DNA of 64,000 bases from Candidatus Gottesmanbacteria bacterium (GCA_016186795.1 JACPKY010000002.1:90593-154592), one strand, 5' to 3'. Shown: positions 33,179 to 55,079, numbered from the stretch's first letter. The notes: generated from the letters alone by a model not told the origin. Numbers and translations are program-made.

Positions 33179-33191
33179 AATATAATGAGAA

Positions 33192-34278: not shown

Positions 34279-36090
34279 ATGTGCGGAATAGCTGGAAAAC
34301 TTTATTTTCATTCCAACACAATACAGAGATCTACAGAACTTCCTCTTATTAACAAAACCTTAGAGAAACTTCATCACCGCGGACCAGATGATCTAGGTTA
34401 TATTTTTGATAGAAACGTTTGGTTAGGAGCAACGAGGCTTAAAATTATCGATCTCTCAGCGGCTGGACACCAGCCGATGCAAAATGAGGATAAACACTTG
34501 ACGTTGGTTTTTAATGGCGAAATTTACAACTATATTGAATTAAAAAAAAGATTACGCAAGAGACATAAATTTATTTCTCACACTGACTCAGAAGTACTTC
34601 TCCACTTGTATGAAGAATATGGAGTGGATTGTCTGCAATTTCTACGTGGAATGTTTGCTTTTGCAATATGGGATAGTCGAAAGAATGAGTTATTTCTTGC
34701 TCGGGATAGGTTAGGAAAAAAACCACTGAAGTATTTTTACAATAACAGGTTCTTTGTTTTTGCTTCAGAGCTGAAAGCATTCGTTGATCATCCAGCAGTA
34801 CCTAAAAAAATAGATGAGGCTGCAATTGACGAATTTCTTACGTTCGGATATATAACATCCCCCAGAACTGGATTTAAAAACATTTGGAAATTACCCTCTG
34901 CCCACTACATGATCATACAATCGACTGGGACAGTGCAGATACAGCGTTATTGGCAGCTCGATTTTACAAAGAAACTCAGTTTACGAGAAGAAGAATGGGA
35001 AGAAAGAATTCTCCAAAAACTGAGTGAGTCTGTTACGCTTCGACTTCGGAGCGACGTTTCTCTCGGATTTCATCTTTCAGGTGGAGTAGATTCTGGAATT
35101 GTAACCGCTCTTGGAGCAATAGCATCGATGAAACCTATTCATACAATTTCTATTGGGTTTCCCGATAATAACTATAATGAATTGCCTTACTCTCGAGAAG
35201 TAGCGCAGAAATACAATACTCTGCACCATGAGATATATGTAAAGTCAGATTTCAAGGTATTTCTTCCTAAATTAACATATCAGTATGAGGAACCATATGC
35301 AGATCCATCAATCATTCCAACATGGTTTCTCATGGAAAAATCAAAAGAGTACTGTACAGTGGTTCTAAATGGTGATGGAGGTGATGAGAATTTTGCTGGA
35401 TACAGACGGTATAAGGTTTTAAAATATTTTACTCTTCTGCAGAAAATCTATTGCAAAAAGCCAATTGCGTATATATTTAAATTTCTCTATCGAACATTCA
35501 AGAGAGAGGATTTTTATCAAATAGGAAGAATTCTCTCTCTCCCCTACTCTGACTTATCACAGTTTTTCTTCGCCGAAAGAACATATGGAAACTTGGGACG
35601 ATATCGTTACCCTTTTAATGTTTCTTCGCTTGAAGATATAATGAGGTTTGATTTTGAGCACTATTTACCGGATGATTTACTTACCAAAGTCGATATCTCC
35701 TCAATGGTTCACTCACTTGAAGTACGGTCGCCTTTTCTCGATCATGAGTTTGTGGAACTTATTGCCAAAATGCCTATCGAGTTGAAACTGAAAGGGATTA
35801 CCACAAAGTATATTTTGAAAAAAATTGCCAATAAATACCTGCCTCCAAAGATTATTGAGAAAAAAAAACAAGGGTTTTTACCACCAATGGCACGATGGAT
35901 ACGGGGAGAACTGCATACGTATTTTAAGAAAGAACTTCTAGAAAAGTCGTTCTTATCCTATGGTTTGGTTCAGAAAGACGATATAATAAAACTTCTACAG
36001 GCGCATGATGAATTCAAAGCAAATCATGCATACGCTCTTTGGACGCTTTTATGTTTCAAGAACTGGCTCAAAATCTGGTATCCTCTTTGA
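34279..36090 (+). CDS. asnB: asparagine synthase (glutamine-hydrolysing), AsnB family
   Basis: MCGIAG has the catalytic Cys2 of class II amidotransferases. The PP-loop motif SGGVDSG lies in the synthetase domain. The protein is 603 aa. Confidence 0.85.
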   Translation: MCGIAGKLYFHSNTIQRSTELPLINKTLEKLHHRGPDDLGYIFDRNVWLGATRLKIIDLSAAGHQPMQNEDKHLTLVFNGEIYNYIELKKRLRKRHKFISHTDSEVLLHLYEEYGVDCLQFLRGMFAFAIWDSRKNELFLARDRLGKKPLKYFYNNRFFVFASELKAFVDHPAVPKKIDEAAIDEFLTFGYITSPRTGFKNIWKLPSAHYMIIQSTGTVQIQRYWQLDFTKKLSLREEEWEERILQKLSESVTLRLRSDVSLGFHLSGGVDSGIVTALGAIASMKPIHTISIGFPDNNYNELPYSREVAQKYNTLHHEIYVKSDFKVFLPKLTYQYEEPYADPSIIPTWFLMEKSKEYCTVVLNGDGGDENFAGYRRYKVLKYFTLLQKIYCKKPIAYIFKFLYRTFKREDFYQIGRILSLPYSDLSQFFFAERTYGNLGRYRYPFNVSSLEDIMRFDFEHYLPDDLLTKVDISSMVHSLEVRSPFLDHEFVELIAKMPIELKLKGITTKYILKKIANKYLPPKIIEKKKQGFLPPMARWIRGELHTYFKKELLEKSFLSYGLVQKDDIIKLLQAHDEFKANHAYALWTLLCFKNWLKIWYPL

Positions 36091-37454
36091 GAAATATTAG
36101 AGGAAAATATATTCTCCTTGGACTAATCTTTTTCTACCTTGTTCAGCTGTTTGCTCCAAACAAACCTGTTTATTTTTTCTCTTATTTTCTTGCAACAGGG
36201 TTTTTCTTTCTAGATAATCGAGATATTCGGAAAAGTCTTTTTTATAGTTTTATTTTGTCACTTTTTTCTGAAGTTGGACTTGCAGGAAGTTTATTTTTAA
36301 TGGAACCAAGTAAATTGCTTTTGGGATCTGGATGGTGGATATCTCCGATGACGCTCTACATTTTCCTTTTCTTTCTTTTTTCATTTGGCAAGCGAATTCA
36401 AAAAATTATCCTTACTGACTACCTAATTTTCCTATTCTTCCTTTGGAATGTTGTTGTATTTCTTGTTCTCCCCGATCGAAATTCTTTCTTTGGATTTATT
36501 TCCTTGATGGAACAAACTATTGCATATTATCTTTTGCGAGTGAATCTTTCCCGGGATACTCTTCCCGTTATCATTACAGTGGTAGTTTCAGTCCTCATTT
36601 TCCAGACTTTGTTATCTTCTGTCCAAGTACTTTTGCGAAGTCCCGTTGGTCTTCGATCAGAGGCTATACTTGTTGAAAATCCATATGGTCTTACTACAGT
36701 TGAGGAAGAAAATCTTTTTCGCGTCTCCGGTACATATGGACATCCAAATCTTTTTGCTACATTCCTTCTTGCAACAATTCCATTTCTTCTTTTTTCGGCA
36801 AAGTTTTCCTGGTGGAAGATAGTTGCAAGCATATTTACATTCTTAGCTCTTTTTTTTACTTACAGTCGCGGAGCATGGTTTTTTTCTATTCCTCTTATGG
36901 TTACATTTGGTGTCATTCTCTTGAGACAATTTGGTCATGCAATCCGATTACGAATACGGTTTCTCCTCCTGTTTCCGGTATTTGTGATCATATGTGTATT
37001 TCTTGTGTTTCCGGCTTTTATTCTTCGTTTTCGGACAATATCTGACGCATTCGTTGAAGGTGGTTCATTTCAGGTTCGAGAATTGTTGATTCAAGAGGCA
37101 ATCCGGATAATAGGTGCTTATCCACTTACTGGTGTGGGATTGAATCGTTCACTCCAATGGTATGCTAATGATCCTGTGACTGATTTATTTACGATCGTTC
37201 CGATATCTGGATTTTATCGGATTCATAATACACCATTGGAAATTGCGACCGAAACAGGTATTGTCGGATTTATTCTTTTTCTTTTTATTCTTGCCGCTAC
37301 AACGTTTAATTTCTTTTCTTTGAAGCAAGATATTGTGAAGATAGCTGCATTTCTAGGACTTTTCGGTTTCTTAGGGATATCTTTTCTTAACCCATTTTTC
37401 CATGCATCTGTTTTCCGTATATTTTTTTTGCTCATTGCAATTCTTGCATTATAA
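36039..37454 (+). CDS. O-antigen ligase-like (Wzy_C) polytopic membrane protein
   Basis: YSRGAWFFSIPL...RIHNTPLEIATETGIVGFILFLFIL matches the Wzy_C H-N-x2-L-E-x3-E-x-G-x2-G motif. There are about 12 TM helices. Confidence 0.6.
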   Translation: MDAFMFQELAQNLVSSLRNIRGKYILLGLIFFYLVQLFAPNKPVYFFSYFLATGFFFLDNRDIRKSLFYSFILSLFSEVGLAGSLFLMEPSKLLLGSGWWISPMTLYIFLFFLFSFGKRIQKIILTDYLIFLFFLWNVVVFLVLPDRNSFFGFISLMEQTIAYYLLRVNLSRDTLPVIITVVVSVLIFQTLLSSVQVLLRSPVGLRSEAILVENPYGLTTVEEENLFRVSGTYGHPNLFATFLLATIPFLLFSAKFSWWKIVASIFTFLALFFTYSRGAWFFSIPLMVTFGVILLRQFGHAIRLRIRFLLLFPVFVIICVFLVFPAFILRFRTISDAFVEGGSFQVRELLIQEAIRIIGAYPLTGVGLNRSLQWYANDPVTDLFTIVPISGFYRIHNTPLEIATETGIVGFILFLFILAATTFNFFSLKQDIVKIAAFLGLFGFLGISFLNPFFHASVFRIFFLLIAILAL

Positions 37455-37477: not shown

Positions 37478-38674
37478 ATGAAAAAGTGTGTTGCATTAGT
37501 AGTCTATTCTCACTATTCTCGCGATGCTCGAGTTCGACGGTACGGGGAATCACTAGAAAGAAGTGGATATAGCGTTGATGTAATTTCATTAGCTGACTCA
37601 TATGAAGAGAAAAAACTTTCTATTTCCTTTATTCAGTTTCCTCTTCCTCGGATGCGTCTAGGAAAGCTTTGGTACATTGCCGAGTATTTTTTGTTTTTTC
37701 TTTTTACCACATGGAAACTGATGGTAGGACAGATTAAAAAGAACTATCAGTTCATTCATGTAAATAATATGCCAGATTTTCTTGTCTTTGCAGCTTTTGT
37801 TCCAAAACTGTTTGGAGCAAAAATTATCCTTGATATTCATGATCCGATGCCGGAATTGTATATGTCCAAGTATCATGTATCAAAAAATAACTTTGTTGTG
37901 AAGATCTTATGCTACTTGGAACGTATATCTATTCAGTTTTCCGATAGTATTCTTACTGCAAATCCAGTTTTTAAAGAAATTCTTCTCAAAAGAAATGCAG
38001 TGAATGAAAAAAAGATTACTGTGATTCTCAATTGTCCGGATACCAGAATTTTCAGTACAAACAATGCCAGAATAAAAAAACATTCTTCTAAATTTACTCT
38101 TCTTTATATGGGTACTGTGGATGAGCGTTTTGGTCTTGATATTGCCATCGAAGCAATACTTACAATCGTCAAAAGAATTCCAAAGGTGCAGTTTATCATT
38201 ATCCCAAAACTAGAAAGAGAAGGAATGTATTTTTCCGAGTTGAGAAATATGGTAATAGGTTATGGATTATCGAAACAAGTATTATTTTATAAACCACTTC
38301 CTCTTGATAAGATTGCAGAAGCATTGAAGAACGTAGATATTGGAGTGGTTCTTGCAAAAGACGGTATTTTCCCAAATATCATTTTTCCGGTTAAACTTCT
38401 TGAATTTATTCAAATGGGAGTTCCCGTTATTGCGACAAAAACGACAATTCTTTCCCGCTATTTTGATCAGACAATGATATTTTTCCTCAAAGAGAATACA
38501 CCAAAAGAGTTTTCTGATGCAGTATGGAGGTTATATTCAAATGAGAAACTCCGAAAATCACTTGTGAAGAATGCAAAGAAGTATTTTACAAAGCATAATT
38601 GGAATAAAGAAGAGAGTAAATATCACGCTGTTGTTACAAAGTTACTTCATCAAAAAAGCAACAAGGAAAAATAG
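37478..38674 (+). CDS. glycosyltransferase family 1 (GT4, WbuB-like)
   Basis: The N-terminus VALVVYSHYSRDARVRRYGESLERSGYSVDVISL is typical of GT4. A C-terminal GT-B domain is present. Confidence 0.65.
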   Translation: MKKCVALVVYSHYSRDARVRRYGESLERSGYSVDVISLADSYEEKKLSISFIQFPLPRMRLGKLWYIAEYFLFFLFTTWKLMVGQIKKNYQFIHVNNMPDFLVFAAFVPKLFGAKIILDIHDPMPELYMSKYHVSKNNFVVKILCYLERISIQFSDSILTANPVFKEILLKRNAVNEKKITVILNCPDTRIFSTNNARIKKHSSKFTLLYMGTVDERFGLDIAIEAILTIVKRIPKVQFIIIPKLEREGMYFSELRNMVIGYGLSKQVLFYKPLPLDKIAEALKNVDIGVVLAKDGIFPNIIFPVKLLEFIQMGVPVIATKTTILSRYFDQTMIFFLKENTPKEFSDAVWRLYSNEKLRKSLVKNAKKYFTKHNWNKEESKYHAVVTKLLHQKSNKEK

Positions 38675-39748
38675 TCGCTTCGGATGAAGGAAAAAAAGAG
38701 TCTTCCACCACAACGGCTTTTGGATTACTAAAGCAGAAAGAAGGAATGTACGGTAGTTACTTTCCCAGTGAGAATATGACTTTCTACCAGAATGAAGTGG
38801 GACATATCCTATAAATTTCAATGTAAAGAGATGATGCGCAATGTTTATTTCCCATGTTTGTTTGAATATCCTCTTAGGAATACTCATTTGTCCAAATACC
38901 TCTTGAAGTCGATCCGTAATAAGAAGAATGAGTTGGTCTATTTGATAGTCTGATAAGATCCTCAGTACCATTCTCCACTCTTTTTGATTTAATTCTTTTC
39001 CGATAATCCATAGCCGATACAGGTTGTTTAATCCGCGGAATCCATCTTCAAGAGCAAAGATGAGGCAATGGTAGAGATACAAGTACGAAAGTTGAAACCG
39101 GAATGTCCCATCTTTGTCTTTTTTGGCATGGCGCCAGAGTTCTTGTGAAATAATCGATATTTGCTGTTTAGAGAGAAGCGTAAGTTTCGATGGCGGAATG
39201 GTAATAGCAGATGTCCGTACTTCCACTTGAGGTGCACGTAGGTTTCTGAAGTGATTCCATTTTGTTTGTGTATAGTACTCTTGTGGTAAATTTGGCCATC
39301 CTGTAGGTTTTTTTTGGGGCACATATCCTATTTCCCGTAAGAGTGTAGACAGTTTCTTTTCATAATTCGTCTTTACGAGAATATCGATATCAAATTTCAT
39401 AAATTTATTTGCTTCAGAAAAATGTGTTTCATACTCGGAAAAATCTTTTAGGAAAACAATGGGAATACGGTTTTTCCGAACCAAATACTTTAGACGACGT
39501 ACCATTTTCTTATAATGAAAACTTCTGGTTTGCTCATACACGTATAAGGTACGCAGTTTCCCTATCATTTTTGACCGGGACATATCACAACGTGAACAGG
39601 TAAGGTAATGAAAAAGGGTATATGCCATTCTGTTTCTGAATGCTTGGTCGATGAGGGTATCCCAATCATTTTTTTTTTGAGGGAGATATTGACGAAGACT
39701 ACAAGGATGTGTAGATTGGAGGAGTTTAATGAGAAGTTTGTCGTACAT
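38642..39748 (-). CDS. uncharacterised nucleotidyltransferase (NTP_transf_5-like)
   Basis: RIPIVFLKDFSEY...KFMKFDIDILV resembles the LKG...R..DIDLLV core of the PF14907-type uncharacterised nucleotidyltransferase. It is co-directional with DegT, with overlapping stop and start. Confidence 0.5.
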   Translation of the reverse strand: MYDKLLIKLLQSTHPCSLRQYLPQKKNDWDTLIDQAFRNRMAYTLFHYLTCSRCDMSRSKMIGKLRTLYVYEQTRSFHYKKMVRRLKYLVRKNRIPIVFLKDFSEYETHFSEANKFMKFDIDILVKTNYEKKLSTLLREIGYVPQKKPTGWPNLPQEYYTQTKWNHFRNLRAPQVEVRTSAITIPPSKLTLLSKQQISIISQELWRHAKKDKDGTFRFQLSYLYLYHCLIFALEDGFRGLNNLYRLWIIGKELNQKEWRMVLRILSDYQIDQLILLITDRLQEVFGQMSIPKRIFKQTWEINIAHHLFTLKFIGYVPLHSGRKSYSHWESNYRTFLLSALVIQKPLWWKTLFFLHPKRLFFLVAFLMK

Positions 39749-41001
39749 TACCGTCGTGAGATTTCAGATATGCAACGTTTGAGTATTTTTGCAACAAAAT
39801 GAACATCAGAACGTGTAATCTGTGAATACAAAGGAAGGCAGATTATTTTTTTACAGATCTGTTCTGTCACGGGTAGGTGATATTTTTTCTCAGAGAAGGT
39901 CGGTTGGAGATGGATTGGGATTGGATAGTGGATTTGATATTCAATATTTTTCTTTCGTAAAAGCCTTGTGATTTCCCCCCGTTCATTTACCTGAACAGTG
40001 TAGAGCTGGAAGATATGGCTACTATTATTTCTTATGAACGGAGGCACAATCGGAGTATTTTCAAGGAGTTTTGTATAGAGTGATGCGAGCTCTGCACGTT
40101 TTTCATTCCATGCGTCAAGATACTTCAACTTCACACGAAGGATTGCTGCCTGAATGGTATCAAGTTTTGAGTTGACTCCTCTTTCTTTATAGTGATAAGA
40201 ATCAGAGTCATAAAGTGTAGGCTCACCGAACTTTCGAAGCATATCGAATTTTCCCATTGCGTTGTGGGATTTCGACCTGACTTTCCGTGAAATTTTCTCT
40301 AAAGGATTTTCATTTTTATACACAAAGTGCCATGGATACGATAGTATGCGTTGGCCATACTGGCGAAGCGAAAGAATACGTTTTACCACGTCGAAATTAT
40401 TTGTAGTAACTGCTCCTCCGTCTCCGAATGCACCAATATTTTTCCTGGGGCTGAAACTAAAAGCAGCTCCATCACCGAGACTTCCTACCCGTTTTCCTTC
40501 GTACCAAGCTCCATGTGCTTGGCAAGCATCCTCAATGACATAAAGATTGTACTTTTTGGCAACTTGTATAATCGGATTCATATCTGCAGGTTGTCCATAC
40601 AGATGAACAGGGAGGATAGCTTTCGTTCGCTTCGTAATTCGCGACTGTATTTTTGTCGGATCCATGGTATATGTTTCTGGATCAATATCGACAAAAATTG
40701 GAGTAGCACCCGTAAGACTTATTGCATTTGCAGTTGCGATAAACGAGTGAGAAACGGTAATGACTTCGTCCCCTTTTCCAATGTTAAAAGCACGAAGGAG
40801 TAAATAGAGTGCATCGGTTCCAGAGCCGACTCCTACGCAATATTTGGCTTGACAGTAGGAAGCAAATTCCTCCTCAAACTGCGCAACCTCTTTCCCTAAA
40901 ATGAAATTGCACTTATGTACGACGGAAAGGATTGCTCTCTCAATCTCTTTTTGGAATTGTCTGTTTTCTTTTTGCAGATCAACAAATTTCACAGCTCTCA
41001 T
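39748..41001 (-). CDS. DegT/DnrJ/EryC1/StrS-family PLP-dependent sugar aminotransferase
   Basis: [13 protein letters not shown], then [11 protein letters not shown] and [21 protein letters not shown] (a Lys-containing PLP motif), match DegT-family aminotransferases. A roughly 60-aa insertion is present. Confidence 0.8.
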
Positions 41002-41088
41002 GACATTTTACGCACCCGCAGTGTAATGGAAATTGCTATCCTTGTAAAGTCTTTCACCCCATTGATATAATGACTCAAAGAAGATTTC

Positions 41089-42075
41089 ATGTTTGCCCCG
41101 AATATTCTCATAACGAACTTTTGTAATCAGAATTGTAGCTTCTGTTTTGCTAGAGCCGAAATGAACGATTCCATTATCGATCGCGAAATGGAATTGTCGA
41201 ATTTCAAGAGAATTCTTACTGAGATGAAGATGAAACACCATGACATTGATACGGTCAAACTTCTTGGTGGTGAACCATCGCTTCATTCTCGATTTCGCGA
41301 TATCATTGAGCTTTCACTTGCAGCCTTTCCATATGTTCAAATTTTTACTAATGGGATTTTTTCACCAGAGATGATCTTCTTTCTCCAAACGAAGGTTCCG
41401 CGAGTAAAGTTTACTTTCAATGTCATGACTCCGGGATTTCAGTTGAACCAGAAAGTCCATAAAAAGGTTACAGAGGCAATACAAATATTTGCGCCTCTCA
41501 CAGAAGTGACACTTTCTTTGACCTTTGATATGCATACCGATATCAGCCGTGCGTTGAATACAGTTGGTGATGAGACGCTTCGAATCGTAAAGAGTTTCCG
41601 ATTAGGTTTTTCCAATCCAATTGCAGGTGAGAGAAATTATTATCAATTTGAGGATTTTCCCAAAGTTGGTGAGCAACTGTACCGTATTATGAAAAAGATA
41701 CGTGGACTTGGGTCAACTGCCACATGCTCTCTCAATTGCGGGTTTACAAGGTGCATGTTTACTGATTCACAGTATGAATTCTTGAAAAAAAGTGGAGTTG
41801 AAATTATGGGATTTGGCTGTTTTGGCAAAGCAAGTAGTGTTGATATAGGGACTGACATGCGTGCGTTCCATTGTTTCCCTTTATCAACAAAAGACAAAAA
41901 GTCCATCAACAATACAGACATCTCAAATGTAGATCAGGATTTTTTGAAAAAGCGCTACGAATACTGGTCGAAAATACGGCTCTCAGTGTGCGTGAAGTGT
42001 CCGTTCTACGGGCATACTCCAGATAAATGTCCTGGTCCATGCATTGCATTTCGTATGAATAGTCCACATGGCTAA
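41089..42075 (+). CDS. radical SAM enzyme with C-terminal SPASM/twitch-like Cys cluster (paralog 1)
   Basis: The N-terminal CNQNCSFC (CxxxCxxC) and the LLGGEPSL SAM motif are present. The C-terminal cysteines are CSLNC...C...C...CVKCPFYG...CPGPC. Confidence 0.8.
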   Translation: MFAPNILITNFCNQNCSFCFARAEMNDSIIDREMELSNFKRILTEMKMKHHDIDTVKLLGGEPSLHSRFRDIIELSLAAFPYVQIFTNGIFSPEMIFFLQTKVPRVKFTFNVMTPGFQLNQKVHKKVTEAIQIFAPLTEVTLSLTFDMHTDISRALNTVGDETLRIVKSFRLGFSNPIAGERNYYQFEDFPKVGEQLYRIMKKIRGLGSTATCSLNCGFTRCMFTDSQYEFLKKSGVEIMGFGCFGKASSVDIGTDMRAFHCFPLSTKDKKSINNTDISNVDQDFLKKRYEYWSKIRLSVCVKCPFYGHTPDKCPGPCIAFRMNSPHG

Positions 42076-43051
42076 GAAAGCACCGTTTGCATTTCCATCA
42101 CTTGCCTACCTGAAAAAGGTTTTTCCTACTTTTCCACTTCTTCGCGGAGATCCGAGCCTGAAGGTTTTACACAAAAAAAACTTTGAGGATAATTTTACAT
42201 TGAAAAAGTTTTCCGATATATTTACAAGATATCGGCAAACACCTTTTACGATGCCTTCCCCAAACAAGGCCGTCATTCTTCTCTGTTCAGGTGGAATCGA
42301 TTCAGTTGTTCTTTGGGAAATTCTTCTAAGAAAGTATAAACTAAAAGTATTTCCGCTGCGCCATACCACACCCAAAAAGCAGGAAGAAAAGGCTTTTCAA
42401 TTTTTCCTTGAGTATTTTCGCAAGAAATATCCCAAACAGTGTCAAGACGTCTTCACCTTTGGCCATGAATTTCTCTTTTCGTTCCAGAAAGAGACATACC
42501 ATCTTTTTGAAAAAGACCAGAAGATGCGGATTCCTAATCTGAGTATCCATGATGGTAAACAGACAGTGGCATTTACTATTCCAATTACACGGCTTGGAGT
42601 ATATGCGTTGAAAGCCTATGAATACGCGCTATATTTGAGGTCGTATGCCAATGTGGATGTTCAAACCGCATTTGTCGCCATCACTCCTGAAGATTCTGCC
42701 TACTATCGGGAGGCAACCCTCACGGTTTTACGGTCGTTCAATCTATCTATTTGTACACTTTTAGGAGATTACCGCTTTCAGTTTACCTCGCCCTACCTGG
42801 AAAAGAGTTTTCCGTTCAAGACGAAACTGGATATTATTTCCTTTGCGAAAAAAACCGGACTTCCACTCGAGATGACGTGGAGTTGTACAGATGATCTACC
42901 ATCTCAATGTGGAGAGTGTTTTTCCTGTTTACTTCGGAAGCGGATTTTTGACATTAGTGGCATTAAAGATAAAACAACGTATGGAAGGAAAGGATTCTGG
43001 ATTTCTCAGGCGGGGAAGAAATTTATCGGAAGGATTCAATCTTCAAAGTGA
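42068..43051 (+). CDS. QueC-like PP-loop ATP pyrophosphatase
   Basis: CSGGIDSVVLWEIL is an SGGxDS PP-loop. The C-terminal C...CGECFSCLLR is a Zn motif like that of QueC (7-cyano-7-deazaguanine synthase). It has about 60 aa of extra N-terminus relative to QueC. Confidence 0.6.
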   Translation: MAKKAPFAFPSLAYLKKVFPTFPLLRGDPSLKVLHKKNFEDNFTLKKFSDIFTRYRQTPFTMPSPNKAVILLCSGGIDSVVLWEILLRKYKLKVFPLRHTTPKKQEEKAFQFFLEYFRKKYPKQCQDVFTFGHEFLFSFQKETYHLFEKDQKMRIPNLSIHDGKQTVAFTIPITRLGVYALKAYEYALYLRSYANVDVQTAFVAITPEDSAYYREATLTVLRSFNLSICTLLGDYRFQFTSPYLEKSFPFKTKLDIISFAKKTGLPLEMTWSCTDDLPSQCGECFSCLLRKRIFDISGIKDKTTYGRKGFWISQAGKKFIGRIQSSK

Positions 43052-43270
43052 ATCTTGACATGTTTCTCATATCTATTACAATGAATTTATTATTCACTAT
43101 TATTTGTGTTACGGAAGTTTTACAACTTCGAAGTCATGAAAAAGGCGCGAAAAACGCACAAACGAGCATACGCAAAGCCAGCTGGTAAGCGCTTGTCAAA
43201 AAGCGTGAAGACCGCATACATGGCGATGGAACATCATTTACCATAAAAAAGGTCGCTTACATTTACTCCA

Positions 43271-44338
43271 GTGTCAGCCATAGATTTACTTCTTACGGAT
43301 TTTTGCAACCAAAGTTGTCCCTTCTGTTTTGCCAGAAAAGAAATGGAATCCCCACTCAAAAAGTATATGACGTGGGAAGATTATCTTTTTATTACGGACG
43401 TATTGAAAAAAAACGAAATTTTTACCCTAAATCTACTTGGTGGTGAGCCGACAATCCATCCCTTTTTTCCCAAAATAATAAAGCATGCCCTGAAAAATTT
43501 TTTTAGTATCATGATTTATACAAACGGTATATTTCCTCCAAAGGTAACAGAAACTTTACGATCTCTCAATACTTCACGAATCAAAATCACATTTAATATA
43601 AGTACCCCAGGATTTATATCAAATCCCAAAATTCGAGATGCAGTCCTTGCAAACATTGAAGAGTTTGCTCCGAAAACTGAAGTCACGCTTGCCATCACTG
43701 ATGTTTTTCAGTCGCAAACGTTTGCTCAGTCGATTTTCTCCCACGTGAATGATTCGCTTCTCAAAAAGGTATATGCTCGGTTGGGATTTGCTTCTCCAAT
43801 TGCGGGTGAGGCAAATTACGTGACGCTTGATGATTTTCCAAACGTCGGAGAAAACTTTTGTGCAATTATAACCGATCTCGACCGGCGAGGTCCTCCAAAA
43901 GGGTATAAAGCTAACACAAGTCTTACTCCCTGTATGTTTAACGAGAAAGAGCGGCAATTTCTTGAAAATCACGAAGTGCGTCTTCACTCAGATTGTCATC
44001 TGGAGATCAATGACCGATGGTTTACTATTACCTCTGATCTTTCAACATTTAAGTGTTACCCACTTTCAATGAGGGAGAGGGGTAAAATTACAAAAAGCAA
44101 CGATTTACCGGCAATTCGAGACGCGTATACTGTGTTGCAGGAAAAATACCGTTCTGAATGGGTGTTACCAAAATGCAAAACGTGTCCATTCTATGGAATA
44201 GGAAAAGGGAAATGTTCAGGTCCTTGTTTGGCATTTCGCTATAATGCTTTAAAGCAGATGAAGAAAATCCCTATTGCAAACGAGGGCGACTTTGTAAAAG
44301 ATAACCCTTCTTTATTCCTTCAGTTACAAAATCAGTAA
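43271..44338 (+). CDS. radical SAM enzyme with C-terminal SPASM/twitch-like Cys cluster (paralog 2)
   Basis: CNQSCPFC and LLGGEPTI are present. Conserved IAGE.NY..DFP.VGE blocks are shared with the 41089 protein. The C-terminal cysteines are CKTCPFYG...CSGPC. Confidence 0.8.
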   Translation: MSAIDLLLTDFCNQSCPFCFARKEMESPLKKYMTWEDYLFITDVLKKNEIFTLNLLGGEPTIHPFFPKIIKHALKNFFSIMIYTNGIFPPKVTETLRSLNTSRIKITFNISTPGFISNPKIRDAVLANIEEFAPKTEVTLAITDVFQSQTFAQSIFSHVNDSLLKKVYARLGFASPIAGEANYVTLDDFPNVGENFCAIITDLDRRGPPKGYKANTSLTPCMFNEKERQFLENHEVRLHSDCHLEINDRWFTITSDLSTFKCYPLSMRERGKITKSNDLPAIRDAYTVLQEKYRSEWVLPKCKTCPFYGIGKGKCSGPCLAFRYNALKQMKKIPIANEGDFVKDNPSLFLQLQNQ

Positions 44339-44585
44339 CATCCTCCCTCGCTTGATGCACAGAGATACCATAAACGTCCTCACATTTGCGGATAAGTGCA
44401 CTAAGAGGTCTTGGTTTCCAAAGATACTTCCATAGCATCTCCGCGCTTTCGTTGAGTGAATACCAGATGTCATTATCAAAATCAACAACAAGGAGGCATT
44501 CTTTTGTTTTTCTTACAAATGTTTTTGAATTTCGACTAATTACAGCGTTATCATGCATTACCATTTTCGTATCAATATAGTACAA
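44271..44585 (-). CDS. PqqD-like (RiPP recognition element-like) small protein
   Basis: LLVVDFDNDIWYSLNESAEMLWKYL...IRKCEDVYGISVHQAREDVTDFVTEGIKKGYL follows the PqqD pattern (beta-strand, x-y-x-LN-eta-a, helix, DV..F). It overlaps the 3' end of the rSAM gene convergently. Its start abuts the HprK-like start, so the true start may be an internal Met. Confidence 0.4.
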   Translation of the reverse strand: MYYIDTKMVMHDNAVISRNSKTFVRKTKECLLVVDFDNDIWYSLNESAEMLWKYLWKPRPLSALIRKCEDVYGISVHQAREDVTDFVTEGIKKGYLLQSRPRLQ

Positions 44586-45361
44586 TGCAGCATATCAAGT
44601 ATGCAAGAAGAAATCTTCCCATGCTAGAGTGTAGTGTGAATTTAGGTATTCGGATACTGAATGTACATTTTGAAACTGAAAAGTTTTATTTTGCTTTTGA
44701 GAAAATATTTCTCTGTACCCCTCCCGTAAAAAATCCGTGGTTTTCCATTTTCATCCGAAAAAGTAAAAAAATACAGAGTAATATCGATATTTCAAAAAAA
44801 CTCGCCGAATTATACTATTGCAACAATAAAGCTTTTCCGTTTACGAAAGCTGTAACTTCTTTCTTCTCATATCTTCTTTACACGCAAGACGTACTCGTTT
44901 TTCATGCTTCATCCGTTGTCAAAAATGACGGAGCAGTTCTTTTCTGTGGAGAACAGGGAGTTGGGAAAACAACTGTATCGGTGATGAGCGGTTTGCCGCG
45001 GTATTCCGATGACGCAGCATTTATAAGGAAATCCGGAAATACATTTCTCCTTTACCCTACACCGTTTGAAACAAGCAAAATATACGCTCGTCTCAGGAAA
45101 CCATTGAAAATCCGCTGTCTGTATTTTCTCCACCAAGGGTCAAGAAATATCGTGAATCGCATGCATCCGTATGAGAGTGTCATTTATGCATCAAGGAATT
45201 TATTTAGTAATTTTCTGAATGTTTCGAATCAAGCGGTACAGAAAGCATGTTATACTTTACTATCTGATTTTGTAGGGAATGTTCCTATGAGACAGCTATA
45301 TTTTAATCGAGATATTGGGTTTCTACAGTCACTTCTTGAGAAGAATGAAGGTAAAATATGA
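44585..45361 (+). CDS. HPr kinase C-terminal domain-like P-loop protein
   Basis: AVLFCGEQGVGKTTVSVMSGLPRYSDDAAFI matches the HprK C-domain G-x-S/G-G-x-GKS/T...DD block. There is no N-terminal HprK domain. Confidence 0.6.
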   Translation: MQHIKYARRNLPMLECSVNLGIRILNVHFETEKFYFAFEKIFLCTPPVKNPWFSIFIRKSKKIQSNIDISKKLAELYYCNNKAFPFTKAVTSFFSYLLYTQDVLVFHASSVVKNDGAVLFCGEQGVGKTTVSVMSGLPRYSDDAAFIRKSGNTFLLYPTPFETSKIYARLRKPLKIRCLYFLHQGSRNIVNRMHPYESVIYASRNLFSNFLNVSNQAVQKACYTLLSDFVGNVPMRQLYFNRDIGFLQSLLEKNEGKI

Positions 45362-45645
45362 GGAAAAAAATGTATAAAAGAAAACCTAACACTCTCTTCC
45401 GTCAAATTGGAAACGAATTCATATTTATTGACTACGGGGAGAGCCGATTTTATTCCCTCAACATAGTTGCATCACGTATCCTACAAATGCTTGGTTCTCC
45501 TAAAGATGTTTACCAAATTTCCGAACGGGTGTCGTTGGAATTTGAAGTTCCATACAAAAAACTTCTTCAAGATATACGAAGCTTTTTGCAGGTGGCTGTT
45601 AAACGGGGTTTGGTGAAAGAAGTTTTTATTACCGAATCCGAGTAA
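45358..45645 (+). CDS. PqqD-like (RiPP recognition element-like) small protein
   Basis: The 95-aa protein reads LFRQIGNEFIFIDYGESRFYSLNIVASRILQML...DIRSFLQVAVKRGLV. A 4-nt overlap (ATGA) with the HprK-like gene suggests translational coupling. Confidence 0.6.
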   Translation: MRKKMYKRKPNTLFRQIGNEFIFIDYGESRFYSLNIVASRILQMLGSPKDVYQISERVSLEFEVPYKKLLQDIRSFLQVAVKRGLVKEVFITESE

Positions 45646-46234
45646 CTGTTTCTTTGCTCATTTTACTTGTTAGAACATTTCCTACCTCTTCTATTTCTAC
45701 ATAATCGCCTACCGCCAGATCTTGAGCGGTTATTTCTGTAATCAATCCAGTCGTACTATCTTTTGAGTAAAAAGAAATAGAAACTTGCGAGGTTTGAACT
45801 ACGTATGGGTACGTACTGGCCTTTGTTTGTGGGTCTTCAATCTGTAAGAGGAAAAAATGTTCTTTTGGTTTTCCCTGCAGTGTCACTGTGGCATCTGTAT
45901 CGATTCTAGTGATTTTACCAGCAAGTGTATATGATATTGTGCCTTCCTTAACAAGCGATGCGTCAGAATTGGTAAGGACATCGGTAAGACTTCGAATAAA
46001 TTCGAGTTTTCCGGCAGGATTTCCAACTGTTACGTCAGCTGGCTTTGACTGAACAACGACACTTGATTGATCAATGGAGTTAATTGGTGGTGGGGTTGGT
46101 ATTGTACTTTCCTGGGGAATTCCCGGAACAAGCTTATTTCCAAAGGTGCTATTGTAATTTACGCCTGCGTATAAACCTATTTCGAAGACGATAACTAAAA
46201 CAAGAAGAATAAAAACCCCGTAGAGCAGTTTCAT
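45629..46234 (-). CDS. hypothetical secreted/membrane-anchored protein
   Basis: It has an N-terminal TM/signal anchor, a Pro-rich linker (PTPPPINS) and then a beta-rich domain. No motif is recognised. Confidence 0.4.
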   Translation of the reverse strand: MKLLYGVFILLVLVIVFEIGLYAGVNYNSTFGNKLVPGIPQESTIPTPPPINSIDQSSVVVQSKPADVTVGNPAGKLEFIRSLTDVLTNSDASLVKEGTISYTLAGKITRIDTDATVTLQGKPKEHFFLLQIEDPQTKASTYPYVVQTSQVSISFYSKDSTTGLITEITAQDLAVGDYVEIEEVGNVLTSKMSKETVTRIR

Positions 46235-46426
46235 GATATTAGTACGAGTTTAAAATCGGTGTGTTTTGAACACTTTTGAGAATTTTTGGTTTTTCGTACT
46301 TCTTTTTTGCTTTAAAGCTTCGCTGCTTTTTCATAGCAATTCATAGGTATAAAAACAGTGTATCGAGGCTTTCAACTGTTGTCAAGATGGAATTCAGAGG
46401 GTAAAATGAGCATAATACATTAGGAT

Positions 46427-47263
46427 TTGAAATCCAGTATATACTATATTTCTATGATCCGTCGCTTCAAAACGATTCATGGACTCCTCGTAGTCACCGT
46501 TCTTCTTGGGATTTTTGCTGCGGGATACTATTTTTACTTTCGAGTAAGAGAAAGCACAACAGTATTTGCTACCGTTACCATCATCAGACCGGAGGATGTT
46601 TCGACTCAGGCGCCATTTAATTGGACTCATGACTGGATAGCCAGGGAAATAAGAGTCGGAGATCGCGAAATTTCACCTTTTGGTGAAGTGAAGGCACAGG
46701 TTTACGATGTAAATTCGTACGAAGGTGGGTTTGATGGGAGATTTGTCTATGTCGTATTGAAAATGAACACCATAAGAGATAGGAGTGGTCAGTACCTATA
46801 TAAGAATAAACCTATAAGTGTAGGATCCCTTATCGATGTCAAGTTAAATTCAACAGCGTTTAAAGCATATGTTATCGCTGTTGGTAAAAATCCCCCTCAA
46901 TCTACATCAAAATTACTTATCGTGAACTTATATGGAAAGCGGATTGATTGGTGGATAGCTGAGAATTTGAAACTAGGATCCGAAATTGTCGATGGAAATG
47001 GGAAAGTAATTGGCAAAATTATTAAGTATTCCTCAGTCCCCTCTTATTCGGGAGGCATACAGACAGATCCAGATCCGCAAAAAAGAGATCTCTATCTCCA
47101 AATGAAGATTCTTGTGAGAGATTTTCATGGGACGTACTATTTTGAAGAGGAACAAAAAGTGAAGGTTCATGAGAGACTTTTTCTCCCGTTTCGCGAACTC
47201 AATATCGAGGAGTTATTTGTTACATCTATCGGTGATGTACTGGAAGCTCAAACAATAGATTAA
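46427..47263 (+). CDS. hypothetical membrane-anchored protein
   Basis: A single N-terminal TM (LLVVTVLLGIFAAGYYFYF) is followed by a soluble domain. Confidence 0.4.
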   Translation: MKSSIYYISMIRRFKTIHGLLVVTVLLGIFAAGYYFYFRVRESTTVFATVTIIRPEDVSTQAPFNWTHDWIAREIRVGDREISPFGEVKAQVYDVNSYEGGFDGRFVYVVLKMNTIRDRSGQYLYKNKPISVGSLIDVKLNSTAFKAYVIAVGKNPPQSTSKLLIVNLYGKRIDWWIAENLKLGSEIVDGNGKVIGKIIKYSSVPSYSGGIQTDPDPQKRDLYLQMKILVRDFHGTYYFEEEQKVKVHERLFLPFRELNIEELFVTSIGDVLEAQTID

Positions 47264-47267
47264 TTTT

Positions 47268-47717
47268 TCAAAAAAGTGCAAGTCGAAGAAGTATTTTTCT
47301 CCCCCGAAGTATTTTTGTCATCACTCTTCTGAACCATGCTGGTCCTACAGAAGTGCAGATTGAATAAAAGAAAAAATACCACTTAATATATTTGAAATAC
47401 AAAGAAGAAAGTTTGAGGGTGCCGTACTTTCCATCAATTCGCTCAAGAATTCCCACGATATGTTCATGGGTGATCGGGGGGTCGCGATACGGAGTATTAT
47501 CTCCTTTTGTTTGAAGGTACTTACCGTAAATCTTTAGTATTCTATGCCCGATAAGGTGACTATCTTGATAGTACACCACAATATCTGCAAGATTAAAATT
47601 CTTCCGTGACGGTTTAACGAAGAGTTTATCCCCCGCATTCATCAATGGTGCCATACTCTCCCCGCTTGCTTTTCCAATATAGAGTGCGTTTGTATGGTGT
47701 TTTATCTTTTCTTCCAT
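47268..47717 (-). CDS. signal peptidase I, SipW/archaeal-type (S26B)
   Basis: GESMAPLM carries the Ser nucleophile in an SM motif. IGHRIL has His as general base, as in SipW/ER-type peptidases. GDNTPYRDP is a GDNN..D box, and ADIVVY is present. Confidence 0.65.
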   Translation of the reverse strand: MEEKIKHHTNALYIGKASGESMAPLMNAGDKLFVKPSRKNFNLADIVVYYQDSHLIGHRILKIYGKYLQTKGDNTPYRDPPITHEHIVGILERIDGKYGTLKLSSLYFKYIKWYFFFYSICTSVGPAWFRRVMTKILRGRKILLRLALF

Positions 47718-47779: not shown

Positions 47780-49570
47780 ATGATTTTCCTAGGACTTGCT
47801 GCTCTTTTTTTCCTTCCGATAATCGAGTCATTTTCGCGAGATTTTGGGTTTTTGATTCTCATCTTTGGCACTGTTTGTATAACTCTTGATCATATTTTGA
47901 AGCGGAGAGAACCGCGCGGGTGGATTCCCTTTTTATTTTTTCTTACTCTTGTAAGTTTTATTCCATCGCTTTTTTATTCTATCTCTATTGAGCGGAGTTT
48001 ATGGGAATTTACGCGCTATGTTTCGTACTTTTTACTATTTTTGTCCTTTTATACCTATTCAAACAAAGATGTCTTATGCCGCTATTTTCTTATTCCAATG
48101 GTTTGTGTTAACAGTATCATTTTATCAATACTGTGGGTGATGTTTTCATTTCTTCCTCAAGAATTTAGCACACAAATATCGGGGATGAATCTTTTCTTTC
48201 CCACTTTTGGACACAACAGAATTTCGGAACTGTATATCTTCTCACTTCCCACATTTCTTTTTTTATGGTTTACAAGTGATAGGAAAAGAAAATATGTATA
48301 TCTTTTCTTTTCCATCTCCACTTTTATCCTACTTGTTTTTACCCAATCACGAGGCTCAATGATAGCACTTTCTATTTCCTTTTTTCTCTATATTCTGCTT
48401 TCAACCAAAGCAAGAAATACTCTGCCTCATTTCATCTCCAATGTATTTAGTAGACTTCTTTCCTCTGCGGGGATTTTGATTAGTGTTACGGTAGTTTTTT
48501 TAATTGCAAGTTTTGCTTATTCACATTTCTTTGTCGCACCAGGAAACGATTATAGTGCCATCAAGGGATTTTATAAACCTCTCTGGAACGAGCGAAGAAT
48601 TGAATACATAAATCATGGCTTTGCGGGATTTCAAAAATCACCGATTGTTGGTACTGGACTTGAGACATTCCGATATGTTTCACTGATGTTTCAAACTGAG
48701 AAAGATCATTGGTCGTGGTATCTTCATAATCATATTCTGGAATTGTTTATTGAGACCGGAATTTTGGGAGGAGTACTTTTTTTATCTTTGATACTAATTC
48801 TACTATTTCAAGTGAACCGCTCCGTACAACACTCTCTTGATCAATTTGGTGTTCTACTTCCTCATGCGCTTTTTATATCTCTTATGGCATCTGGCATCCA
48901 CTCCTTTTTAGACTACGACTGGCACTTTCTATCACTATTTCTTCTCTTTTGGGCTTCTGCAGGAATACTAATTGGAAATAAAAATACACTGAAAATTTGG
49001 CATTCAAGACTTTCAGTTATCAGTTTGTGTATTCTTTTTGGGTTAACTGTGGCCCTCTTCATACTACCAAAAAGTAAGAATGTTATCGAAAAGAGTGCTG
49101 ATCTTCTTGAGGAAAAGAAAGAAGATGAAGCTCTTCAACTTCTTCTTTCTGCCTACACATTTGATCGTGCAAATGGAGATATTTCTGTTAAAATCGCTGA
49201 TATATATTCTGAGAAAGGAGATTGGGAAAATGCGCATCTCTGGTACCAGCGGGCAATTATTTTACAGCCATTCTATCAGAAATATTCACTCATGCAAGAT
49301 ATCGTTGTATATCTTGATGAAGCAGAGAGCGCATTGGGCCAATCTTCTTTTCAGGAAGCGCAATATACAATAAGAAAAGCGAAAGTAATTTATCCGTACA
49401 TTTACCGGCTGCAGACTTCTACTATTGATACGCTTTCTACTTCCGAGTTTGAAGAGCTGATTAAGTCGTTGAAGAAAGAGAGTCAACAATGGGACCCATC
49501 GGACATGGAGATACTCGTTTCTGTTGATACTATTTACTCGTTGAACCCCGAAGCGTCTTTATGGCAATAA
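47780..49570 (+). CDS. O-antigen ligase-like (Wzy_C) membrane protein with C-terminal TPR-like domain
   Basis: QSRGSMIALS...HNHILELFIETGILGGVLFL matches the Wzy_C motif. The C-terminal roughly 170 aa are helical repeats. The architecture matches the 17585 paralog. Confidence 0.6.
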   Translation: MIFLGLAALFFLPIIESFSRDFGFLILIFGTVCITLDHILKRREPRGWIPFLFFLTLVSFIPSLFYSISIERSLWEFTRYVSYFLLFLSFYTYSNKDVLCRYFLIPMVCVNSIILSILWVMFSFLPQEFSTQISGMNLFFPTFGHNRISELYIFSLPTFLFLWFTSDRKRKYVYLFFSISTFILLVFTQSRGSMIALSISFFLYILLSTKARNTLPHFISNVFSRLLSSAGILISVTVVFLIASFAYSHFFVAPGNDYSAIKGFYKPLWNERRIEYINHGFAGFQKSPIVGTGLETFRYVSLMFQTEKDHWSWYLHNHILELFIETGILGGVLFLSLILILLFQVNRSVQHSLDQFGVLLPHALFISLMASGIHSFLDYDWHFLSLFLLFWASAGILIGNKNTLKIWHSRLSVISLCILFGLTVALFILPKSKNVIEKSADLLEEKKEDEALQLLLSAYTFDRANGDISVKIADIYSEKGDWENAHLWYQRAIILQPFYQKYSLMQDIVVYLDEAESALGQSSFQEAQYTIRKAKVIYPYIYRLQTSTIDTLSTSEFEELIKSLKKESQQWDPSDMEILVSVDTIYSLNPEASLWQ

Positions 49571-54608: not shown

Positions 54609-54624
54609 AGAGAAATTATGCTTA

Positions 54625-54654
54625 TTGACAAAAAAGTTTCCTTTGTTTCATAAT
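54625..54654 (+). promoter_or_regulatory. candidate sigma70-type promoter
   Basis: TTGACA, a 17-nt spacer, then (T)CATAAT. It lies 18 nt upstream of the ORF at 54672. Confidence 0.3.
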
Positions 54655-54671
54655 GGAGAAAGTAGATAGGT

Positions 54672-55079
54672 ATGAATAACAAAGTTCTTCTGGCAGCCGT
54701 TGTTATTTTAAGTATTCTTGGTATCGGGGGAGGATTGGTCTTAAACGCACGGAATAATTCGGTTTCATTGGAAACCTCAGGATCCAACGAGGGAAGAGAT
54801 ATTGACGCAAACCAAGTTATCAGTTCACCGACTATTAAACCCTCACCAACCATTCCAGTATTATCAAAATCTGTCAAAAGTATCGATAGCACAACTATTG
54901 TTATAACCGGAGCGTCAGGCGATTTAAAGTTACCAAGAACTTCCCCAATTCTTAAATACTTTAAGAGGGTCGGTGGTAATCTTGTTGCAACAACTAGTGA
55001 TGAAGTAAAAGTAGGTCAAAACGTGACATATACGCTTGTTGTACCTGGCAAAGAAGCCCATCTGATTATTGAACAGTAA
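54672..55079 (+). CDS. hypothetical small secreted protein
   Basis: It has an N-terminal signal/TM (VLLAAVVILSILGIGGGLVL) and is 135 aa. Confidence 0.4.
   Translation: MNNKVLLAAVVILSILGIGGGLVLNARNNSVSLETSGSNEGRDIDANQVISSPTIKPSPTIPVLSKSVKSIDSTTIVITGASGDLKLPRTSPILKYFKRVGGNLVATTSDEVKVGQNVTYTLVVPGKEAHLIIEQ

Follow-up and report, generated by a model that had tools for sequence, protein, structure and literature searches.

What might be made by a gene cassette that brings together two radical S-adenosylmethionine (rSAM) enzymes, a QueC-like ATPase, a protein resembling HPr kinase, a nucleotidyltransferase and two small PqqD-like proteins? We examined this question in a 64,000-nucleotide stretch of DNA (the window) from a Candidatus Gottesmanbacteria bacterium (GCA_016186795.1, JACPKY010000002.1:90593-154592). 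We consider it likely that the cassette is a cluster for a ribosomally synthesised peptide with post-translational modifications (RiPP) that is specific to Patescibacteria (Candidate Phyla Radiation, CPR), is guided by RiPP recognition elements (RREs) and reuses tailoring parts of the lasso-peptide type. That the cassette is a peptide-maturation system is well supported. What we observed directly are gene identities, folds, domain fusions and co-conservation, together with the existence and conservation of precursor peptides.

The original prediction, made from the sequence of the window, had placed the cassette at 38642-45645. According to the open reading frame (ORF) map and profile searches, all the genes that it listed are present there, correctly typed and in the places it gave, but it omitted a DegT aminotransferase gene and the unit runs further, so that the cassette spans 38642-47717 (Table 1). 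Besides a 278-aa protein and an S24 peptidase, this extension contributes a membrane protein and the second precursor.

Precursor peptides and the conserved gene set

ORF calling and clustering covered 17 independent loci, to which six further neighbourhoods were joined (individual loci are cited below by L numbers). About 20 loci of different genomes contain the gene set, with domain fusions joining its members; the co-conservation in other Patescibacteria genomes on which the prediction depended is thus found. The co-conserved set consists of rSAM, PqqD, the QueC-like protein, the kinase-like protein (14 loci), NTP_transf_5, an S24 protease and two further proteins, F3 (about 190 aa) and F10 (about 280 aa), whereas in the clustered loci AsnB and DegT are not co-conserved. 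The QueC-like gene is missing in L004 and L007, where a PAPS-reductase-type PP-loop protein is found beside the precursor instead, and an ATP-grasp protein takes its place in L027. YcaO and a nitroreductase-like dehydrogenase lie beside several loci. Genes that generate amines or amino sugars recur within the cassettes: DegT in the window, a sugar N-formyltransferase in L017, ornithine/arginine decarboxylases in L022 and L026, a group II pyridoxal-phosphate (PLP) decarboxylase in L029 and spermine-synthase-like proteins in L014 and L027. Their recurrence hints that the nucleophile or the decoration may vary from locus to locus.

No precursor had been evident to the original prediction. We found two precursor genes. 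Neither product is Cys-rich; both start with MKK and have a Lys-rich leader with a Y-x-K-P-x-hydrophobic motif. A strict form of this motif (ATG, at least four K/R, Y.[KR]P and a stop after 8-45 aa), for which these loci were themselves the source, has 18 matches in 366 kb comprising the window and related loci, compared with a mean of 0.57 and a maximum of 2 in Markov shuffles. Exactly two of the matches are in the window, and both lie within the cassette. A relaxed Y..P motif brings in further members, one of them in the distant locus L026. Altogether about 25 precursor peptides were recognised in related loci and two in the window, and in about 17 related loci of Patescibacteria a homologous peptide is encoded next to the rSAM gene. 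In most loci the small ORFs from the motif scan adjoin rSAM or QueC-like genes.

The precursor alignment shows a common leader and two classes of tail. Class I peptides end in a short segment with a C-terminal Tyr: ..ILNSY in the window and ..TWY, ..SGY, ..TDY, ..MGY, ..MDY or ..TSY in homologues. Class II peptides are longer and have the leader, an (E)xLLA motif and a short C-terminal tail of 3-9 residues, which in the window is A-M-E-H-H-L-P. This AMEHHLP tail resembles ..LAAEHHLT of L022 and ..LAMQHYLFGY of L029, each of which is encoded beside an rSAM-2-type gene; the likeness therefore suggests that rSAM-2 is paired with an [EQ]-H-[HY]-L peptide. In the window, L010, L013 and L020 the gene directly downstream of the class I precursor is that of F3.

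A profile built from the precursors outside the window ranked the class I ORF first of 2455 six-frame segments (E 0.047). E-values from the profile hidden Markov models are marginal; the case for the precursors rests on motif enrichment, position and orthologous tails. All-against-all clustering of small ORFs was tried and rejected as a precursor finder, since it recovered mostly shadow ORFs of conserved genes. A promoter-like site lies upstream of each precursor gene, the one at the class II gene being the best in the 38-48 kb region and the one at the class I gene being among those with 10 of 12 matches. These sites are consensus matches only.

Could unrelated genes have come together by chance, with small ORFs that are spurious? 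Short Lys-rich ORFs are common in AT-rich DNA, and the total of promoter-like sites in the region, 31, is not above the 28 seen in shuffles. Such an accident, however, does not fit a gene set present in about 20 loci with fusions linking its members, the excess of the strict motif or the way in which the peptide tails track the rSAM subfamily. Co-conservation and fusions exclude chance juxtaposition for practical purposes, and we give it next to no credence.

Table 1. Features of the cassette and of other parts of the window. Positions are counted from the first nucleotide of the window.
Feature	Position	Strand	Remarks
NTP_transf_5-like nucleotidyltransferase, 368 aa	38642-39748	-	PF14907, E 9e-12; FDIDILV core
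DegT/DnrJ/EryC1 PLP sugar aminotransferase, 417 aa	39748-41001	-	PF01041, E 2e-114, in two stretches
rSAM-1, 328 aa	41089-42075	+	PF04055; SPASM-like C-terminal domain; the family's signature gene
QueC-like PP-loop ATPase, 327 aa	42068-43051	+	PF06508; 8-nt overlap with rSAM-1 stop
Promoter-like site TTGACA-16-TACAAT	43055-43082	+	11/12 matches; 54 nt upstream of class II precursor
Class II precursor, 36 aa	43136-43246	+	MKKARKTHKRAYAKPAGKRLSKSVKTAYMAMEHHLP; directly upstream of rSAM-2
rSAM-2, 355 aa	43271-44338	+	PF04055; paralogue of rSAM-1, divergent subfamily
PqqD-a, RRE protein	44271-44585	-	PF05402, 36.2 bits; converges on rSAM-2
HprK/ScmC-like P-loop kinase-fold protein, 258 aa	44585-45361	+	Weak sequence matches; HPr kinase fold
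PqqD-b, RRE protein, 95 aa	45358-45645	+	PF05402, 43.8 bits; 4-nt overlap with kinase-like stop
F3 protein, 201 aa, N-terminally membrane-anchored	45629-46234	-	Downstream of class I precursor
Class I precursor, 31 aa	46239-46334	-	MKKQRSFKAKKKYEKPKILKSVQNTPILNSY; short, C-terminal Tyr
Promoter-like site TTGACA-17-TACACT	46357-46385	-	10/12 matches; upstream of class I precursor
F10 protein, 278 aa, N-terminally anchored	46427-47263	+	In 7 loci, next to the cassette
S24/S26 signal-peptidase-I-like protease, 149 aa	47268-47717	-	PF00717, E 1.8e-7; candidate leader peptidase
Tyrosine recombinase (Phage_integrase, XerC/D-like)	3779-4705	+	About 25 kb upstream of the island
Wzy_C (O-antigen-ligase-like) membrane protein	17585-19465	-	In or beside the pilus and glycan region
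AsnB-like protein	34279-36090		Genuine glutamine amidotransferase; XrtA/PEP-CTERM-type; passes asparagine synthase model
Wzy_C (O-antigen-ligase-like) membrane protein	36039-37454	+	In or beside the pilus and glycan region
Wzy_C (O-antigen-ligase-like) membrane protein	47780-49570	+	In or beside the pilus and glycan region
1375-aa protein	49621-53748	+	GC 0.46-0.47; sole match weak, thrombospondin type 1; adjoins PilX-like and PilM genes

Radical-SAM, QueC-like and PqqD proteins

The two rSAM enzymes, which are 39% identical, match the Pfam Radical_SAM model with E-values of 1e-13 (rSAM-1) and 5e-14 (rSAM-2) and carry the motifs CNQNCSFC/CNQSCPFC, GGEP and CxxCPFYG..CxGPC. In the family alignment the residues of the CxxxCxxC cluster motif (C12, C16 and C19) are invariant, and so are seven further Cys at positions 222, 244, 262, 301, 304, 314 and 318. 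The auxiliary spacing is Cx2Cx9Cx3C, altered from the Cx2Cx5Cx3C of SPASM domains. The AlphaFold (AF2) model of rSAM-1 is confident (pLDDT 87.8), and its best Foldseek matches are SuiB, SkfB, anSME, ChlB, BlsE, TigE and PqqE. Because of the seven invariant extra Cys and this modelled fold we call the rSAM enzymes SPASM-like but divergent. These Cys and this fold speak for the SPASM/twitch-like clusters of the original prediction, but the Pfam SPASM model gives no match.

Several known rSAM/SPASM maturases (SuiB of the streptide pathway, PqqE with PqqD, MftC with MftB, ChlB) likewise combine CxxxCxxC with an auxiliary-cluster domain and work with a partner RRE, and their full-length folds are similar (TM-scores of 0.54-0.67). 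The cassette enzymes differ from them in showing 12-16% identity, the altered Cys spacing and no equivalog assignment, and their RRE is a separate protein. None of the NCBIfam equivalog or housekeeping cut-offs was reached, with QueE, MoaA and MftC all far below threshold and anSME absent from the 25 best NCBIfam matches listed. A housekeeping enzyme of the QueE or anSME kind, which would have spoken against the original prediction, was therefore rejected, QueE being just rank 31 by fold. The rSAM family is tiny: 131 relatives were found in 5.8 billion proteins, all of them metagenomic and none specifically named, and in species-representative genomes it occurs in metagenome-assembled genomes of Patescibacteria, Microgenomates and Roizmanbacteria.

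The rSAM-2 orthologue in L022 matches with an E-value of 2e-101, and rSAM-2-type neighbourhoods are also found in L027, L028 and L029. At its C-terminus the window protein carries about 25 extra aa that most homologues lack, and the 3' ends of the rSAM-2 and PqqD-a genes overlap convergently by 68 nt (44271-44338). A 92-aa ORF on the minus strand at 41008-41286 was discarded as a shadow ORF of rSAM-1.

An rSAM/SPASM-like enzyme with PqqD also resembles MftC/MftB and PqqE/PqqD, and one might ask whether the product is a peptide-derived cofactor similar to mycofactocin or PQQ. In this scheme rSAM and PqqD would modify the C-terminal Tyr of class I, for example by oxidative decarboxylation or cross-linking, and a protease would free a fragment that is then glycosylated. 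Class I peptides and several of class II share the conserved Tyr, the fold matches include PqqE, the mycofact_rSAM model is weakly matched, and GT2 (glycosyltransferase family 2) genes are near many loci, as MftF is in mycofactocin clusters. The MftC model TIGR03962 (cut-off 265 bits), however, gives just 26.5, the scanned cassette genes include none of the MftD or MftE type, and several divergent precursors with variable tails per locus are unlike a cofactor scaffold. With MftA, which ends in -VY, the peptides have only the C-terminal Tyr in common. The kinase, the QueC-like enzyme and the membrane-anchored partners are foreign to cofactor pathways, and the minimal redox metabolism of Patescibacteria also weighs against such a product. 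We regard a cofactor as improbable.

The QueC-like ATPase scores 44 bits with PF06508 (cut-off 22), and the SGGxDS motif (SGGIDS in the window) and the zinc motif C-x7-CGECFSC (C..CGxCxxC) are invariant in its family. An exhaustive search gave 1045 cluster representatives, 82 of them at E<1e-30; nine of the ten relatives that we looked up were unnamed or generic, and one had been automatically annotated as QueC by JGI. A C-terminal PqqD domain is found on orthologues in L008, L013 and L030, and on 6 of the 22 family members. This fusion suggests an enzyme built to act on an RRE-bound peptide. A second arrangement, in L026 (8012-13717), groups PqqD and two QueC-like genes in tandem with a 490-aa CxxxCxxC protein, a small ORF of the KKKYIRP type and an ABC exporter, and it follows that the pairing of PqqD with QueC-like enzymes extends beyond the rSAM family studied here.

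The best solved relative of the QueC-like enzyme is Cap9 (E 1.5e-12), followed by QatC and QueC. Cap9 is a QueC-like enzyme that joins a 7-amido-7-deazaguanine base to a protein N-terminus (bioRxiv 10.1101/2025.04.06.647259). The cassette protein is a Pfam family member and shares the PP-loop and zinc motif with QueC, Cap9 and QatC, whereas the cassette has no queD, queE, folE, Cap10 or Qat context and its orthologues are fused to PqqD. With the QueC equivalog TIGR00364 it scores 34.6 bits against a cut-off of 150.3, and no que or folE genes were found among the window ORFs scanned with Pfam (about 40 of 66, at least 120 aa). A 2026 survey of PF06508 never mentions peptides, PqqD or radical SAM.

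These relatives raise the question of whether the cassette serves anti-phage defence or conflict, its QueC-family protein acting as in QatABCD or the type IV cyclic-oligonucleotide-based anti-phage signalling system (CBASS) and its rSAM enzymes as viperin-like proteins. Apart from Cap9 and QatC being the closest solved relatives, PADLOC gives partial matches to its QueC/QatC and pVip models, and insertions of toxin-antitoxin and abortive-infection (Abi) genes lie near L029 and L030. The PADLOC matches, however, are confined to the generic rSAM N-terminus and the zinc motif, the QatC model scores 25.8 against a cut-off of 280, and neither QatA, QatB or QatD nor Cap10 or a CD-NTase was detected with Pfam, NCBIfam or PADLOC. 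PADLOC calls no system, there being partial domain matches without partner proteins, and leader-bearing peptides and RREs would be left unexplained. The defence candidate was rejected and is in our opinion very improbable.

Both PqqD proteins, which had been predicted to belong to PF05402, exceed its gathering score of 23.4 bits. The gene call for PqqD-a gives 97 aa, and the ATG yielding this length is probably its true start. Their best NCBIfam matches are lasso PqqD chaperone models, all sub-threshold, as is the match of PqqD-b to WgkC.

Tailoring proteins and comparison with named systems

The HprK-like protein shows weak sequence matches (PEPCK_ATP 3e-5, HprK_rel_A 2e-3). A word-indexed homologue search with this protein alone returned only itself, and its relatives were reached via a profile of locus-derived homologues. 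Their family has the signature LHAS..G.SG.GK(S/T)T..SDD with invariant H107, S109, G..GK.T and D143, and the family profile matches phosphoenolpyruvate carboxykinase (PEPCK) over the signature region. The AlphaFold model (residues 90-258) matches the HPr kinase/phosphatase structures 3tqf, 1kkl and 1jb1 in Foldseek, with target TM-scores of 0.5-0.56, as well as PEPCK. Some relatives are annotated as PF27840 (ScmC) or PF07475 (HprK_C), but our Pfam search gave no PF07475 match for the window protein and no ScmC match either for it or for a relative bearing the precomputed PF27840 mark. The HprK-like assignment of the original prediction therefore stands by fold and not by the sequence model: on the modelled fold and the signature, we place the protein in the HPr kinase/phosphorylase superfamily. 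By analogy with lasso kinases (PMC8498205, PMC10368454), we infer that it would act as a kinase on Ser/Thr of the peptide.

In most orthologous loci the nucleotidyltransferase is the C-terminal half of a fusion with an S24 peptidase. These S24-NTP_transf_5 fusions (family F4) are 416-457 aa long and occur in 10 loci, whereas the two genes are separate in the window. The fusion protein of L008 matches PF14907 at 1.6e-14 and also Peptidase_S24, and a pairwise match around the DxDILV core has an E-value of 0.007. In L030, whose rSAM is 58% identical, a free NTP_transf_5 gene lies upstream of the rSAM gene, an arrangement as in the window. The S24 protein scores 41.5 bits with sigpep_I_arch and is also SipW-like, both matches being sub-threshold.

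The F3 family is present in 10 loci, and the window protein matches a 183-aa protein of L022 over its full length (E 1e-4). Judged from the sequence, the F3 gene would be co-transcribed with the class I precursor. F10 has no Pfam or NCBIfam match. The DegT gene overlaps the start of the NTP_transf_5 gene by one base, and its product gives 258 bits with a PseC-like NCBIfam model, which is below the cut-off. No DegT orthologue was found among the clustered ORFs of other loci, and the gene appears to be a locus-specific accessory. An insertion of about 45 aa (roughly residues 219-270) parts the two Pfam stretches of DegT.

Kinase, nucleotidyltransferase and RRE together bring to mind tailored lasso clusters, and we made the comparison with those of paeninodin, pseudomycoidin and bsf (A, B1, B2, C, K, N, D). 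In lasso pathways HPr-kinase homologues phosphorylate the precursor and a nucleotidyltransferase, sometimes fused to the B2 leader protease, adds hexoses to the phosphate; in pseudomycoidin the pair gives a phosphoglycosylated peptide (PMC8498205). The lasso leader has YxxPxL at -17 to -12, and the B1 RRE helps the protease and boosts the HPr-kinase-like enzyme (PMC10368454). Similarly, the cassette has a discrete PqqD-type RRE, a Lys-rich leader with YxxPx-hydrophobic, an HPr-kinase-like enzyme that would work with the RRE and an NTP_transf_5-type nucleotidyltransferase of the kind sometimes fused to a leader protease. The BsfA leader MEMKKAKNKISRKLIYKKPQLTYHSTLAAIIR is much like the class II leaders, and a PP-loop ATPase stands where lasso clusters have an Asn-synthetase-like cyclase.

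The differences are equally clear. As the original prediction had observed, lasso B2 and C are absent: Pfam and NCBIfam searches of the cassette ORFs revealed neither a transglutaminase-type B2 nor an Asn-synthase-like cyclase, and the S24/S26-type protease and the QueC-like ATPase are candidate stand-ins. The cores, at 2-9 residues, are too short and have no Asp/Glu at positions 7-9, and the core enzymes of the cassette are rSAM enzymes. A lasso product was rejected on core length and the missing acidic acceptor. AsnB as a hidden lasso cyclase was likewise rejected: it scores 260 against 525 on the lasso cyclase model, has an intact MCGI site and is not co-conserved.

SynChlorMet shares its parts list with the cassette, with two paralogous rSAM/SPASM enzymes, a PqqD-like protein and the HprK-related ScmC. 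Scores with its models are nevertheless low, at 22-27 bits against 400 for ScmE/ScmF, 15.9 against 100 for ScmD and 31 against 125 for ScmC, the last measured on a homologue, and the cassette adds the QueC-like enzyme, NTP_transf_5, the S24 protease, F3 and F10. SynChlorMet (ScmC-F; TIGR04248-04251) is itself uncharacterised, and we found no paper on the Scm cassette. The HPr-rel-A system shares an HprK-related P-loop protein, PqqD and NTP_transf_5, and an AsnB of the XrtA/PEP-CTERM type is nearby in the window. HprK_rel_A/B (TIGR04352, TIGR04355), however, give 17-38 bits against 200, AsnB is not co-conserved, and the system's own PqqD model was not among the NCBIfam matches. The defining models of lasso, SynChlorMet, HPr-rel-A, mycofactocin, QueC and Qat/CBASS systems were all missed, and we found no paper describing this gene combination; the earlier impression that it corresponds to no described pathway is thus borne out.

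The proposed pathway and its genomic setting

The original prediction had offered three hedged readings, a RiPP-like system, a peptide-primed glycan pathway and a cofactor pathway. The first is best supported because leader-bearing precursors were found, and the other two are weaker. For the RiPP pathway we propose the following chemical steps, step order and roles of F3 and F10 as a working model. The two precursors would be expressed from their own promoters, and the PqqD proteins, as RREs predicted to bind the leader, would present the peptide to the enzymes. The SPASM-like rSAM paralogues may then carry out radical chemistry on the C-terminal core, rSAM-2 acting on the [EQ]-H-[HY]-L peptide. 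The QueC-like ATPase would adenylate a carboxylate, most plausibly the free C-terminus, and convert it to an amide with nitrogen from ammonia or from an amine supplied by the locus. The C-terminus is the most economical target because it is the sole carboxylate common to all precursors, the class II tails ALKS, LSKM, TTKA and ATKV having no acidic residue. There is a precedent for this type of reaction in the Asn-synthetase-like TsrC, which amidates the C-terminus of thiostrepton. The HprK-like kinase could phosphorylate a Ser/Thr/Tyr hydroxyl, and NTP_transf_5 might decorate the phosphate, perhaps adding a sugar in whose synthesis the coupled DegT would assist. The signal-peptidase-like S24 protease would take off the leader at the membrane, and the membrane-anchored F3 and F10 may serve in export, immunity or display.

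Several observations weigh against this RiPP pathway. All organisms that carry the cassette are uncultured, and the window cassette contains no transporter. On the side of the peptides, the class II ORF has an E-value of 4 with the non-window precursor profile and is not significant by itself, the enrichment was measured with a motif taken from the loci searched, both precursors are without a clear Shine-Dalgarno sequence, and the cores, with 3-9 residues after the LLA motif, are unusually short for antimicrobial RiPPs. As to the enzymes, PF13186 (SPASM) is not matched by the rSAM proteins at E<=0.1 in the Pfam search, and the sugar-nucleotide enzymes BlsE and AbmM are also among their structural neighbours. 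Finally, there are the glycan genes: Wzy_C and glycosyltransferase genes surround the cassette in the window, L026, L027, L029 and L030, with Wzy_C adjoining it in the latter four, and a GT2 gene abuts the kinase-like gene in seven loci (L004, L007, L009, L011, L017, L020 and L028).

These glycan genes also speak for a pathway in which the peptide is just a primer or acceptor and a glycoconjugate of the surface, instead of a free RiPP, is the product. The kinase-like protein, NTP_transf_5, DegT, GT2/GT4 (families 2 and 4) and Wzy_C would then build a phospho-glycan on the peptide or move a peptide-linked glycan to the surface or pilus. In keeping with this, the cassette sits in a low-GC island with GT2, GT4, two Wzy_C, AsnB and GDSL genes, the DegT and NTP_transf_5 genes are coupled by their overlap, the sugar N-formyltransferase of L017 lies inside its cassette, and a kinase and nucleotidyltransferase pair does phosphoglycosylate a peptide in pseudomycoidin (PMC8498205). 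However, no Wzy_C gene turned up within 10 kb in L004-L022, DegT and AsnB lack co-conservation with the cassette, and its neighbours in most loci are housekeeping genes, such as those for a penicillin-binding protein (PBP) or ribulose-phosphate epimerase. The glycan-locus association claimed by the original prediction is therefore true of the window and of only a subset of loci. For priming a glycan, rSAM/SPASM enzymes with RREs and a QueC-RRE fusion would be superfluous. We judge the glycoconjugate pathway unlikely, with the qualification that it overlaps the preferred RiPP reading, since a glycosylated RiPP fits both.

As we read it, the cassette encodes an RRE-dependent radical-SAM RiPP pathway, with a QueC-RRE fusion and an S24-NTP_transf_5 fusion as unusual components. 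RiPPs are barely known in the Patescibacteria/CPR lineage (PMC8939145), and the cassette supplies both a defined precursor family with a recognisable leader and a small, previously unnamed family of rSAM/SPASM-like enzymes. It also gives a first indication of RRE-guided peptide maturation as a further use of the QueC scaffold, for which protein modification in phage defence has lately been demonstrated, and it points to a way in which lasso-type parts (RRE, kinase, nucleotidyltransferase) could have become combined with other chemistries. The components are all small and soluble, or have soluble domains. A bolder proposal, which we put forward tentatively and think on balance doubtful, is that QueC-like enzymes carrying or partnering an RRE are a new class of RiPP-tailoring enzyme, with a peptide carboxylate as the target of ATP-dependent amidation, ligation or nitrile formation. 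Along with the divergent SPASM-type rSAM and the S24-nucleotidyltransferase fusion they might define a new RiPP class confined to Patescibacteria, whose short phospho- or glyco-decorated peptides would be shown or released at the cell surface, beside the type IV pilus and glycan machinery, and act in the interaction of episymbiont and host.

The window is chromosomal, carrying gyrA/gyrB, H+-pyrophosphatase, RNase III, RecG and TyrRS genes. Contigs L001-L003 are 100% identical to it and represent the same contig in three sequencing runs. The island with the glycan genes and the cassette has a GC content of 0.29-0.40 and interrupts a type IV pilus locus. The first half of this locus (12957-27417) encodes PilB, PilT, PilC, several N_methyl pilins and a prepilin peptidase, and the second (49621-57590) the 1375-aa protein, a PilX-like protein and PilM, with the glycan/peptide island of lower GC in between. 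The PilM...Wzy_C...S24 neighbourhood is kept in L029, the closest relative. GC falls to 0.29-0.31 at 30000-34000, where GT2, GT4 and GDSL genes lie, from about 0.41-0.43 in the flanks; exchangeable glycan genes or a segment gained by horizontal transfer typically have such a composition.

The Wzy_C family includes pilin O-oligosaccharyltransferases, and glycosylation of pilins or surface proteins is therefore possible. The AsnB-like gene noted in the original prediction about 5 kb upstream is real, but it is not a conserved companion of the cassette. In the closest relatives, toxin-antitoxin or abortive-infection genes (NTP_transf_2/HEPN-type pairs, AbiEii) are inserted inside the cassettes or next to them, at 10363-10847 and 15698-16571 in L029 and at 5035-5924 in L030; one such insertion seems to have split a ScmC-like gene. 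The 1375-aa protein in the second half of the pilus locus may be a pilus-associated adhesin.

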